Assembly: GCA_011364905.1 (NCBI GenBank)
Contig: RDNZ01000001.1
Span: 96,001 to 160,000 of the forward strand
DNA: 64,000 bases
Origin: Candidatus Thorarchaeota archaeon
GTDB lineage: Archaea; Asgardarchaeota; Thorarchaeia; Thorarchaeales; Thorarchaeaceae
Reading direction: 5' to 3'
Made by a program: the position numbers and the translations under genes. The notes beneath the pieces were generated by a model. The model did not search any database, had not been told where the DNA came from, and saw only the letters and a list, made by a program, of their open reading frames with translations. Positions 41,878 through 45,804 of the stretch are shown here, piece by piece (position 1 is the stretch's first letter; each line of letters begins with the position of its first letter).

Positions 41878-41975
41878 CTTTTTCCACCTATTGAATCAAG
41901 CACGGTGGCCAGATAGAAAGCATCGATGGTGTTCATGATTCGTCGATTGTCACTAAACTTGGTGGAAATTTGTGG

Positions 41976-42011
41976 TTTTCAAGGTTCGATGATCCCAAAT
42001 TTTCAAGGTTC
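41976..42011. repeat. 12-bp direct repeat upstream of the hdr operon
   Basis: TTTTCAAGGTTC at 41976-41987 and 42000-42011 (24-nt period). Confidence 0.6.
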
Positions 42012-42690
42012 ACCGCCCTAGTCAATATACTCATATCTTGCATAAAGGGCCTATATGCTTCATTGTCGAAAACAGCGCATACACATTACAAGAAATGATT
42101 GGAATTGAAACTATCACAATTGAATTCTTACTATATAGGACAAGAAATAGGCATTTCATGATTACGAGCTCCAAGTCTTAACCATGAATCTATTCAATCA
42201 GAAAAGCTGGAATGATGTCACAAAACAAACATGGCTGTTTTACCTTAGTTTCAGGTTGAAACAAAACTATGCACACAATGGAGATGAAATGTGAACCATT
42301 ACCTCTCAAACATGCACATTACTAATCATTCAACTATATTATTTTTAGCTGATTTGATAAACTGACCTCTTAAGCTTTTTAGTAGCTATTACTACGTCAG
42401 CATTAATAAAAATAGTAAAAACGAAGCTTCCCAAATATCTCTAAAATGATGATTCATATCATTCAAATATTGGCTTGATTTGCATCATTTCATAACTATT
42501 TTGTGTCTATGTCCAAAAATCAACACAATAGAGAAAACGAGAAGGTTGTTTGCGGCCTACTTTTTCTTAGGAATTGGAACCCTAATTAGGAATTGAGGCA
42601 GTTGCTTTTTCGAAAAACATCATCTCGAAGCAAATTATGTATCTGATTAGACGTCAATGTGCGCTCTCGCCGCATAATAGAAAAATGGAT

Positions 42691-42710
42691 GGGGGTTCTC
42701 TGAAACCCCC
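42691..42710 (-). terminator. GC hairpin followed by a U-rich tract, after the 67-aa gene
   Basis: GGGGGTT...AACCCCC followed on the minus strand by ATCCATTTTTCT. Confidence 0.6.
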
Positions 42711-42728
42711 TGAACTTACTTCGGCACT

Positions 42729-42932
42729 TTACTTTCTGCGTATGCTTGGGCCTTCGATAATACGGAGAATCTGTTTCGATGTCAGAGTAGTATACTCAGC
42801 ATCCGGAAACATGCTATTCTCATGCTGCTCTTTGATCATCTCTGCAAAGTACTTTAGATACCATCGGACCTCGTCCTTGCTATGTTGACGTATTGCCTTA
42901 GTTTTCCGTTTTCGTGAGATACTTCCTGACAT
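42729..42932 (-). CDS. 67-aa basic protein of unknown function
   Basis: GGAGGT RBS 9 nt before ATG 42932: MSGSISRKRKTKAIRQHSKDEVRWYLKYFAEMIKE...GPSIRRK; followed by a terminator-like hairpin. Confidence 0.65.
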   Translation of the reverse strand: MSGSISRKRKTKAIRQHSKDEVRWYLKYFAEMIKEQHENSMFPDAEYTTLTSKQILRIIEGPSIRRK

Positions 42933-43118
42933 TCTTGTTTTACCTCCAATGAGGAACAAGACATCCAGAGCAGCTGTTCGCTTATAGCTACAGTCCGCAA
43001 ACCTAGTCCTCTCCCCCGAGAGGACCACAGAGAAAACGCAGGCATCACGAGGAAAAGGACATAGCATTAGTTCCCACTAATATTTGGGAACCAATACTGG
43101 ATTGTCATTATTCCTCGC
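42933..43118 (-). ncRNA. Highly structured 5' leader RNA (candidate riboregulator)
   Basis: Rod hairpin 43047-43118 with G-U pairs, 8-bp hairpin 43006-43025, SD-sequestering hairpin 42933-42961; TTTAAA box at ~43148. Confidence 0.55.
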
Positions 43119-43236
43119 ATTGTAAACGATTTTTAGGGAAATTTGAATTTAAACATTGACATCGAAGTATTGTCGTACTGCTGGAAATGCTTTTGAACAA
43201 CTAGAGCACATGTAAAGAAAGCGTCCAATAGGAAGA

Positions 43237-45804
43237 GTGGCTTTGACAGAATCTGCTCAAGAAAAACTCACTCGTGCAAAGGCCCTCCTAAAGACGGGAG
43301 AATATGAGAAATGTCTACAGGTCATAAACGCCCTTTCTGCAGGAGATGAGTCAAAGGATCCTCTCGTAACACTGGACACCCTAGTTATCAGAGCAGAAGT
43401 TTCCTGGCGAACAGGAAAGCTGGATGATGGTCTTGACGCTATTGACAAAGCTGAAAGATTCTTCTCCGCCGATTGGATGAGGAAGCTAGAAGAGCAAAAG
43501 GAGATTCTTCAACAAAAGAAGAGCAATATCCTATCACAAGCAGGTGTGATTTATTGGTACAAAGGTGACCTGATTAAGGCAAAGGAAAGCCATGAAGAGA
43601 GCTTGAGAATCAGAGAGAGGCTAGGGGATAAAGAAGGCATTTCTATAGCCTACAACAACCTGGGTCTCGTTTTTTGGACGAAGGGAGACCTTGACAAAGC
43701 AACTGAGTGCTACAAAAGGAGCATAACGATCTATGAAGAGCTAAATGATGAGAATGGTGTATCAAAAGTCCTCAATAATCTGGCTAACATAAGTGCATCA
43801 AGAGGTGAGCTCGATCAGGCATTGGAATATCATCAACAGAGTCTAGCCATCAAAGAGCGAATAGCATCAAAGCAAGACGTTGCTGTATCACTCATAAATA
43901 TCGGCGTGATTTACAGACTCAAGGGAGAGTTGGACAAGGCAACGGAGTACTACAACAAAAGCTTAGCCATTCAAGAGGATATTAACATTGGACCAGAGTT
44001 CGCTCTTGTTCTACACAACTTGGGAGAGATATACAGTCTAAAGGGAGAAATTCAACTATCTTTGGAGTTCTATCAGAGAAGTCTTCTCATTTATGAAGCA
44101 ATGGGGACAAAGGAAGGAATAGTTCTGACTCTGATCAATATTGGGGATTGTTACAGTAGAAAAGGGCAGCCTGAGATTGCATACGAATACTTCCAAAGGG
44201 GCTTGACAATTGCAGAGGATATGGGAAGTCTAAGGCTGATTTCAAATGCTCTCTCTGATATCATTTGGGCCGCATTGGACAATAAAGACACAGAGCTAGC
44301 CCACGAATATTTGTCAAAGCTAGAACTGGTGAATTCAGAATCCGACAGTCTCTTTGTTGACCAAAGATATCGACTTTCAAAAGCCCTTTTTCTTAAAAAG
44401 AGCGGACGTACACGTGAGAGAGCAGAGGCGGAGGAGATTCTTGAGAAACTTTTGGAGGAAGAAATCACAGACCATTCGCTCACGGTCACAGCTATGATCC
44501 ATCTGTGCGATTTACTACTGATGGAACTAAAGATATCAGGGGAAGAGAGCATTCTCAAAAGAGCAAAAGATCTTACCGAACGACTCAGCGGAATAGCTGA
44601 AGAACAGGCATCACATCCTTTGTTCGTCGAAACACTTCTTCTTCAATCTAAGCTAGCAGTTGTGGCATTCGAATTTAATCAAGCAGATGAATTGATGAAA
44701 AAAGCGAAGCAGATTGCAGATGAAAAAGGACTGCTAAGATTGTCAAAAACTGTGGAACGTGAGGTTCAACTTCTACAACAGCAAAGAGAGAAATGGGAAA
44801 AAACTCTCAAGACCAGTCCGTCCAAACAGGAGATGGTTGAACTTACCAACCTGAATGAACTGTTGGAAAAGATGGTCCAGAAAACAGTAGAAACTCTTGG
44901 TCTAGAATCAAAGGTCGAGTCAAGAAAGTCTAAGTATAGATTGGTTTACCAAGACCTGCTGGGAAGCAGTCAGAAATCAGAAAGAGGTCGGTTCAGAGTA
45001 GGTATTGCGCAGATTGGACTCGCCGACCAAGGGGATATTCTGAATGAGCTCTACGAAGAGAAAGGTGACGGATTAATCGGTCTTCGAGATGACTCAATTG
45101 AAACAGTGCGAGAGAAATTGCAGAGCATGGTAAAGAGAGCTAATTCTGAGAATGTTGACGTCCTCATCTTTCCTGAGATGACCATCGATCTCAACTATGA
45201 ACAACTGGCAGAGGATGTACGAAACCTTGCTAAACAGTACGAGATGTGTATCATTCCGGGATCATTCCACAATAAGGATACAAGGAAGAATGTTTGCAGA
45301 GTCTATGGTCAAGATGGAATCCTTTGGGAGCAGGAGAAGCATATTCCAGCTATCATCCATATAGCAGATAAGAGGTTCATAGAAAAAATTGAAACTTCAG
45401 AAAAAGAAAAAAACACAATCGTATGCAACACACAGTTTGGTAGGATTGCTATAACGATTTGCCGTGACTTTCTTGACATGGACTTAAGAGTTGAATTGAA
45501 GAACTCGGACCCTCCTGTGGACCTAATCATCAATCCAGCTTTCACTCCAGTAACTGCTGATTTCAAAGCGGCACATTTTGACGCGAGAAGGTCAATCTAT
45601 GCGTACTGCTTTTTTGCTAATGTTGCGGAGTTTGGCGACTCACTGATTTATAGTCCTGAGAAGGACCGCATTGAGAGGAATGTGCCAAGGGGAGAGGAGA
45701 ATCTAATCTACAAGGATGTGGATCTGTTCCAACTTAGATCGGAACGTAAGAAATGGGAAGAAGAGAGGAAGAAAAAAGTTTCATTCATCCAAAGCACGAG
45801 ATGA
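43237..45804 (+). CDS. TPR-repeat protein fused to a C-terminal nitrilase / carbon-nitrogen hydrolase domain
   Basis: About six or seven 40-aa TPRs (NNLG.V...KG.LDKA...Y..SL.I), then RVGIAQ, IFPE, QEKH and ICRDF (E-K-C triad). Confidence 0.88.
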   Translation: MALTESAQEKLTRAKALLKTGEYEKCLQVINALSAGDESKDPLVTLDTLVIRAEVSWRTGKLDDGLDAIDKAERFFSADWMRKLEEQKEILQQKKSNILSQAGVIYWYKGDLIKAKESHEESLRIRERLGDKEGISIAYNNLGLVFWTKGDLDKATECYKRSITIYEELNDENGVSKVLNNLANISASRGELDQALEYHQQSLAIKERIASKQDVAVSLINIGVIYRLKGELDKATEYYNKSLAIQEDINIGPEFALVLHNLGEIYSLKGEIQLSLEFYQRSLLIYEAMGTKEGIVLTLINIGDCYSRKGQPEIAYEYFQRGLTIAEDMGSLRLISNALSDIIWAALDNKDTELAHEYLSKLELVNSESDSLFVDQRYRLSKALFLKKSGRTRERAEAEEILEKLLEEEITDHSLTVTAMIHLCDLLLMELKISGEESILKRAKDLTERLSGIAEEQASHPLFVETLLLQSKLAVVAFEFNQADELMKKAKQIADEKGLLRLSKTVEREVQLLQQQREKWEKTLKTSPSKQEMVELTNLNELLEKMVQKTVETLGLESKVESRKSKYRLVYQDLLGSSQKSERGRFRVGIAQIGLADQGDILNELYEEKGDGLIGLRDDSIETVREKLQSMVKRANSENVDVLIFPEMTIDLNYEQLAEDVRNLAKQYEMCIIPGSFHNKDTRKNVCRVYGQDGILWEQEKHIPAIIHIADKRFIEKIETSEKEKNTIVCNTQFGRIAITICRDFLDMDLRVELKNSDPPVDLIINPAFTPVTADFKAAHFDARRSIYAYCFFANVAEFGDSLIYSPEKDRIERNVPRGEENLIYKDVDLFQLRSERKKWEEERKKKVSFIQSTR

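Follow-up and report, generated by a model that had tools for sequence, protein, structure and literature searches.

A conserved leader RNA with two competing folds and an embedded short reading frame: a candidate translational switch in Thorarchaeota

In the 64,000-nucleotide stretch of Candidatus Thorarchaeota DNA analysed here (the window), a minus-strand leader of about 190 nucleotides (about 43123 to 42933) runs up to the AUG at 42932 of a small ORF, and it is likely to be a conserved cis-acting two-state element controlling access to the Shine-Dalgarno (SD) sequence of that ORF. As judged from comparison of homologous sequences, its two folds are both conserved and mutually exclusive, and a short upstream ORF (uORF) within it is conserved in start, stop and frame. 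We favour, at somewhat under even confidence, the reading that the leader is a translation-coupled, attenuation-like switch whose state is set during transcription by translation of the uORF. More tentatively, it might be the first archaeal translational attenuator to be described, in which the ribosome on a leaderless 17-codon uORF picks the fold co-transcriptionally and thereby gates a basic-helix protein. To our knowledge, bacterial cis-regulatory RNAs have been charted thoroughly whereas hardly any are known from archaea, and the leader would be among very few candidate translational switches in the latter. It makes a compact candidate with comparative evidence, namely an RNA of about 160-200 nucleotides, two folds over six genera and a mini-ORF. 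Its read-out is clear, the SD being either free or paired, and could be tested in vitro without culture of the host.

A TATA box, TTTAAA (43148..43153, minus strand), lies about 30 nucleotides ahead of the conserved block and predicts a transcription start near A43123. The box is conserved: in 41 of 42 homologous loci, a TTWWAW sequence stands 32-37 nucleotides 5' of the AUG that opens the uORF. Folding of the leader gave a minimum free energy (MFE) of -83.3 kcal/mol, compared with -54.3 +/- 4.4 kcal/mol for 200 dinucleotide-preserving shuffles (z -6.57), none of which reached the energy of the leader. The MFE fold is exactly the set of hairpins from which an earlier note on this DNA had proposed a folded leader of about 190 nucleotides hiding the SD, and the TTTAAA box, the rod, the second hairpin and the final SD hairpin all lie on the minus strand where that note had placed them. 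The rod pairs GCGAGGAA with UUCCUCGU and GACA with UGUC and is topped by a 14-bp stem, the P2 hairpin (43063..43098, minus strand). The next hairpin, GUCCUCUC-GGGG-GAGAGGAC (43006..43025, minus strand), brings together two segments, C and D, which are 92% paired among the homologues.

The third hairpin, P4 (42970..42998, minus strand), had been read in the earlier note as GUAGCU/AGCUGC. The hairpin is present, but covariation backs another register, GCGG.CUGU.GCU/AGC..ACAGCUGC, in which seven of the eight stem pairs are changed on both sides. Its sequence is variable and it is missing from some lineages; an SMTZ1-45-like clade carries a 32-nucleotide deletion at this place. Directly 5' of AUG 42932, UCUUGUU-CCUC pairs with GAGG...AACAAGA to form the SD hairpin, which takes up the SD of the main ORF, GGAGGU (42942..42947, minus strand). 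SD-like motifs stand 5' of 11 of the 50 long ORFs in the window, as against 5% at random positions. CCUC precedes the SD by 3-6 nucleotides in most of the 42 leaders and the CCUC:GAGG helix is 90% paired, a motif search finding plain CCUC or GAGG missing from 3 leaders. At the far end of the gene, a GC hairpin (42710-42691) and a run of five T form a terminator-like element (42681..42710, minus strand), in agreement with the hairpin and U-tract noticed earlier, and an equivalent GC hairpin after the stop codon is conserved within the genus.

Homologues were gathered by DNA and protein searches, and a covariance model was built from 20 genus-level leaders. Within one Thorarchaeota family, the leader and the small ORF occur together in 36 of 86 genomes, covering 6 of 16 genera, with one leader copy per matching genome by the covariance model. 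The model did not find the leader in 125 searched genomes from the other families of the phylum, many of the searched MAGs being incomplete, so that the lack of a match in any one genome is no proof of absence. The ORF that follows is the same small basic one in all 42 distinct leaders. A search of Rfam 15 gave no match at E <= 10 within 42691-43153 on either strand, and neither tRNA nor tmRNA was found in the window. The stretch occurs once in the 3.08-Mb assembly and is therefore not a repeat, which rules out a repeat or mobile element. Literature searches yielded no description of this leader and, in the literature searched, no cis-regulatory RNA described from Asgard archaea; the combination of a leaderless uORF and a junction-closing helix in an archaeal host was likewise absent from Rfam and from that literature. 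These results agree with the proposal in the earlier note of an undescribed cis-acting leader. Assignments of the rod to a K-turn, C/D box or H/ACA RNA were dropped after inspection by eye, its internal loops being without tandem G.A pairs and no ACA box following the hairpins. Covariance models also matched weakly on the antisense strand of the leader loci themselves (L057:1516-1716 (+), L036:241-442 (-), L066/L060:1496-1588 (-) and L062:1617-1714 (+)); these matches arise because the hairpins are near-palindromic and are no evidence for an antisense gene.

RNAalifold, applied to an unbiased MAFFT alignment of 20 sequences, returned a long-range fold and not the local hairpins. Four minus-strand segments and one further strand are involved. 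Segment A, which is also the 5' strand of helix P1, is GCGAGGAAUAAUGACAAUCCAG (GCGAGGAA..GACA.UCCAG; 43097..43118), segment B is UGUCCUUUUCCUCGUGAUG (core GUCCUUUUCCUCGUGA; 43043..43061), segment C is GUCCUCUC and segment D is CGGGGGAGAGGAC. The 3' strand of P1, CUGGAUGUCUUGUUCCUC (42951..42968), includes the anti-SD CCUC. In the OFF fold, the A:B helix forms the rod that carries P2, C pairs with D, and the P1 3' strand pairs with the SD and the start region. In the ON fold, A (GAGGAA...GACA.UCCAG) pairs with CUGGAUGUCUUGUUCCUC to give P1, and GUCCUUUUCCUCG pairs with CGGGGGAGAGGAC to give B:D, in which D and its loop (43018-43006) are the partners of B. P2 and P4 are found in both folds. The ON fold leaves the SD and the AUG single-stranded, and P1 closes a three- or four-way junction. 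The two folds are mutually exclusive, the P1 3' strand doubling as the 5' arm of the SD hairpin. The static rod and hairpins of the earlier note therefore stand as a conserved fold, the OFF fold, but as one of two that exclude each other.

The support for each fold was assessed by counting pairs in 42 sequences from 6 genera, with slid partners as control. On an alignment fitted to ON, 84.2% of cells were paired in the ON fold and 38 of 59 pairs were changed on both sides (score 0.234); on an alignment fitted to OFF, the same fold retained 82.5% paired cells and 29 of 59 such pairs (score 0.189). The OFF fold gave 84.2% and 31 of 59 on its own alignment (score 0.183) and 80.5% and 25 of 59 on that fitted to ON (score 0.153), and all four pair counts overstate the independent events, since many of the 42 sequences are close relatives. 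The slid-partner control scored 0.05-0.08 throughout. Covariation among homologous loci had been suggested in the earlier note as a check on its RNA, and across these sequences and genera the helices are indeed maintained through sequence change.

On these comparative grounds, P1 is the most convincing helix. It spans 11-18 bp in most lineages and has been rebuilt from unrelated sequences in different genera, as in GACA.UCCAG/CUGGAUGUC, UACCGAA.ACAAUG/UAUUGUUUCGGUG and GUUAUUACAC/GUGUAGUAAC. B:D is 90-92% paired, with compensatory changes. A:B is 94.8% paired among the 42 sequences and varies on one side only, and the OFF fold therefore owes its support more to conservation than to double compensation; the same holds for the OFF-specific helices generally, which are supported mostly by conservation and one-sided changes. 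It could thus be asked whether ON is the sole functional structure, for example by serving the small protein as an RNA scaffold or as a partner in an RNP, with OFF a by-product of repeated GAGG/CCUC words. That most double compensations sit in ON-specific helices, and that A:B has none, is what such a scaffold would lead one to expect. We nevertheless consider it quite improbable, as segment C is almost invariant although unpaired in ON, and the complementarities 5' AUG(UCA)C/GUGAUGU and CCUC/SD (3-6 nucleotides apart) are kept in all genera. Moreover, B, C and D co-vary as a trio. In four sequences of one clade, C>U changes in both B and C accompany G>A in D, a concerted change that is expected if D pairs with B and C in turn.

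We further compared the energies of the two folds by forcing four core pairs of either one and then computing the full structure. In every homologue the two full structures came out with comparable energies. The difference, ON minus OFF, was -1.4 +/- 4.5 kcal/mol for 39 homologues, the folds themselves being worth -50 to -85 kcal/mol. OFF and ON are thus nearly isoenergetic, and ON is the unconstrained minimum in some homologues. Near-equal energies are required of a switch, and they would also suit a translational ON riboswitch for a metabolite or ion, in which a ligand at the P1-closed junction keeps the anti-SD strand off the SD. The layout resembles an aptamer joined to an expression platform, with the 3' strand of P1 as the anti-SD, and the covariation of the ON helices is strong and holds on the alignment fitted to OFF. 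A riboswitch is rather improbable nonetheless: the leader stands only ahead of one orphan, non-enzymatic protein and not ahead of transporters or biosynthetic genes, the junction strands differ among genera, P4 is dispensable, and Rfam offers no match. Temperature might also be thought to shift the balance between the folds, as in an RNA thermometer or a cold-shock-type leader, given two competing folds and a long structured 5' UTR before a small nucleic-acid-binding-like protein (compare cspA). However, computed values of ON minus OFF for 39 homologues showed no consistent trend from 4 to 65 C, with means of -1.8 to -0.5 kcal/mol and signs that differ among homologues, and both folds are very stable; we regard a thermal switch as very improbable.

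The leader also carries the uORF (43067..43120, minus strand), which is absent from the account given in the earlier note. It has 17 codons and a UAA, would encode the peptide MRGIMTIQYWFPNISGN and is predicted to be leaderless. The conserved block opens with ACAAUG, which places the uORF AUG at 43120, and the UAA (43069-43067) lies inside the 3' arm of P2. An AUG and a UAA or UAG are found at the same places, 16-18 codons apart, in all 42 leaders. The distance from AUG to stop is 48, 51 or 54 nucleotides, a multiple of three in 42 of 42, and the frame is held although the P1 5' strand, the P2 loop and the stretch following the AUG all contain indels. Other segments of the leader vary by non-multiples of three. 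The independent indel events within the uORF whose length is a multiple of three number about four or five only. In archaeal promoters, the spacing from TATA box to start site would put the start 1-6 nucleotides before this AUG. With the box 32-37 nucleotides upstream, the 5' UTR is therefore predicted to be 1-6 nucleotides long and the uORF to be leaderless.

Coding and pairing are superimposed along the uORF: codons 1-9 make up segment A, that is, the 5' strand of P1, and codons 8-17 and the stop codon lie in P2. P2 contains a G.U wobble that is invariant in 40 of 42 leaders and never becomes G-C. The G of this pair belongs to UGG (Trp), of which it is the second G, and the U opens the stop codon; coding accounts for the retention of the wobble. 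The Gly codon two positions ahead of the stop uses all four third bases. The conserved residues R-G, W-F and S-G coincide with paired nucleotides, so that the peptide might be conserved solely on account of the RNA structure. The uORF stop also overlaps an AUG in the sequence UAAUG (43065-43069, minus strand), which here opens a 112-codon frame into the main ORF; this overlap is limited to some members of the genus, and others read CUAGUA.

In the translation-coupled reading that we favour, local hairpins would form in order of synthesis when the leader goes OFF: the A:B rod would bury the uORF AUG, C:D would form, and the anti-SD strand would cover GGAGGU and the start-codon region. A ribosome on the nascent 5' AUG would keep A and P2 unfolded as B emerges, and B would then capture D. 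After termination of that ribosome, A would be left with the anti-SD strand as its sole option, and the ON fold would result. Without a pioneer ribosome, the rod would form first and the mRNA would be locked OFF. As the uORF AUG lies in or beside a helix in both finished folds, it should be usable mainly during RNA synthesis. The signal would be the speed of ribosome loading or the dwell of the ribosome on the uORF, set for example by translational capacity, by charged tRNA at the Tyr-Trp-Phe-His codons or by nascent-peptide arrest. The ribosome may pause at those codons or at termination.

This sequence of events was sketched for the 42 leaders by sequential folding, with the uORF masked to 12 nucleotides past its stop where a ribosome was assumed. 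In this crude sketch, the rod formed in 42 of 42 prefixes without a ribosome, after which 41 of 42 had an SD that was at least 75% paired. Masking of the uORF let B:D form in 38 of 42 leaders, and with B:D fixed and the mask lifted, P1 reached at least 8 bp in 32 of 42. Equilibrium calculation gave a mean unpaired probability for the SD of 0.22-0.26 with a ribosome on the uORF and of 0.30 without. A ribosome on the uORF thus does not free the SD at equilibrium, and occupancy as the cause of SD opening was rejected; since equilibrium occupancy leaves the SD paired, activation must be kinetic and follow termination. As in an attenuator, the last hairpin holds the main SD, and the first competing segment is overlapped by the uORF.

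The product that would be gated by this leader is a basic helical protein of 67 amino acids (42729..42932, minus strand) belonging to an orphan family. Column identity among 16 genus-level homologues was 0.877, 0.925 and 0.748 for the three codon positions, indicating that the ORF is a real coding sequence. The leader, with a column identity of 0.872, is at least as conserved as the ORF. The consensus of the protein is MS[GA]..S.KRKRK..R[QE]..K[DE]E[VI]R.....F[AG][DE].I...FP..Y..LT. An AlphaFold model (pLDDT 77.7) consists of a long basic helix (residues 3-40) and a short one (residues 52-60). Among 1.84 billion proteins, 16 cluster representatives were found, all of the same orphan family, and the protein has no Pfam match above threshold and no match to PDB sequences, by Foldseek or in the Atlas.

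Dedication of the leader to one basic protein raises the question of autoregulation, in which the protein would bind its own leader, for example at the rod or P2, and stabilise OFF. RNA and ORF accompany each other one to one at all 42 loci and are single-copy in each genome, no other gene type carries the leader while neighbours vary by genus, the Arg/Lys-rich N-terminal helix is the best-conserved part of the protein, and P2 is kept across genera in its sequence as well as in its pairing. Against this, the protein has no RNA-binding domain recognisable in Pfam, PDB or Foldseek searches, no leader-like primary target that the leader could mimic was found elsewhere in the genome, and the conserved frame of the uORF would be left unexplained; we regard autoregulation as unlikely. 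The suggestion in the earlier note that the protein might be toxic fits the data poorly. In a type I toxin-like mRNA, the 5' fold would silence the message until processing and an antisense RNA would serve as antitoxin; such an mRNA would share with this locus the small product, the long inhibitory leader and the sequestration of the SD. The protein is, however, hydrophilic and basic without a membrane helix, and its gene, which shows no sign of mobility, is single-copy, vertically inherited and conserved in position within the genus. An antisense promoter was not seen, and the weak antisense matches of the models reflect palindromic hairpins, so that a toxin mRNA is hardly credible here.

The ATG at 43067, from which translation might have run through the leader, was also examined. 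The 112-amino-acid ORF that starts there was rejected, in-frame stops and frame shifts interrupting it in most homologues; its frame stays open only in some close relatives. This answers a doubt that the earlier note had raised about its own leader. Some public gene calls (P0001, P0002 and P0007) give 112 amino acids here (42729-43067, minus strand) and 104 and 91 in relatives, with the leader as an N-terminal extension. As the leader frame is not conserved, these starts are probably over-extended, and the present analysis would correct the calls that take the leader as part of a 112-amino-acid protein. It also draws attention to a small basic protein that is specific to the lineage and apparently merits tight control.

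By analogy, the logic of the leader is that of bacterial leader-peptide attenuators combined with that of translational ON riboswitches. In attenuators such as ermC, cat/cmlA, secM-secA and mifM-yidC2, as in the leader, a short ORF overlaps the first of the mutually exclusive segments and the main SD hairpin is opened by alternative pairing. The leader differs from them in its archaeal (Asgard) host, in a uORF that is predicted to be leaderless and not SD-led, and in a much larger RNA whose three- or four-way junction is closed by a helix of 11-18 bp. In the folding sketch, moreover, opening follows termination and not occupancy. The add adenine riboswitch similarly uses P1 to capture the anti-SD strand and free the SD, and has near-isoenergetic competing apo folds, whereas the leader has no Rfam aptamer match, serves a single orphan gene and embeds a uORF. 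The leader is also comparable to the autoregulatory leaders of L1, S15 and L20 and to the archaeal L7Ae K-turn leader in being dedicated to one small basic protein; in its internal loops, however, no K-turn was recognised by eye, and no mimicked genomic target was found.

Two further comparisons concern the uORF. A preprint reports mycobacterial leaderless polycysteine sORF attenuators, in which an sORF at the 5' end acts as a sensor for expression of the downstream gene (bioRxiv 10.1101/834739). The leader resembles these in its short ORF, predicted to be leaderless, at the 5' terminus of the RNA; the mycobacterial sORFs are bacterial, contain runs of Cys codons and control operons, whereas the leader has single Tyr, Trp, Phe and His codons and an RNA with two folds. 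GCN4 and ATF4, examples of eukaryotic uORF control, offer an analogy in that a small protein with a basic helix is preceded by a long leader in which a uORF is conserved, and the host lineage of the leader is related to eukaryotes. The 67-amino-acid protein, by contrast, has no detectable bZIP signature, and the proposed control would act by RNA refolding and an SD and not by scanning and reinitiation. If the attenuator reading is true, the leader would place a prokaryotic example alongside regulators that are controlled by uORFs, such as GCN4, and it would reveal whether coupling of transcription, translation and RNA folding regulates genes in the archaeal lineage nearest to eukaryotes.

The earlier note had connected the small gene with the hdr operon. 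Within the genus the gene is often upstream of hdrCB, and most loci of the genus share synteny with the gene on the other side, which is not found in other genera. That gene (43237-45804, plus strand) is divergent from the leader and encodes an 855-amino-acid protein with a TPR array fused to a C-N hydrolase (nitrilase-superfamily) domain. In other genera neither neighbour is present, and an AsnC-type regulator, an L-PSP protein and others take their place. As the neighbours differ among genera, the leader and its ORF are best regarded as an autonomous unit and the hdr connection as incidental; the small gene, furthermore, has its own terminator. With synteny confined to the genus, neither hdr nor the TPR-nitrilase gene was retained as a general functional partner. 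Between the terminator of the small gene and hdrC1 lie about 810 nucleotides (41878-42690) with no ORF of at least 60 amino acids and no Rfam match, and the spacing to hdrC ranges in relatives from about 0.7 to 2.6 kb. Directly upstream of the leader, and in the same orientation, one other genus encodes a 367-amino-acid protein with two AsnC/Lrp-type winged-helix domains (L060:336-1436 (+) and equivalents). Conserved promoter-proximal motifs were also seen upstream of the TATA box (43154-43194, minus strand). One, ATAC-N5-6-RARGTCAA (43170-43154), abuts the box and recurs in most genera, and another, AAAAGCATTTCCAGCA (43194-43179), lies farther 5'; these motifs may be a transcription-factor site between the divergent genes.
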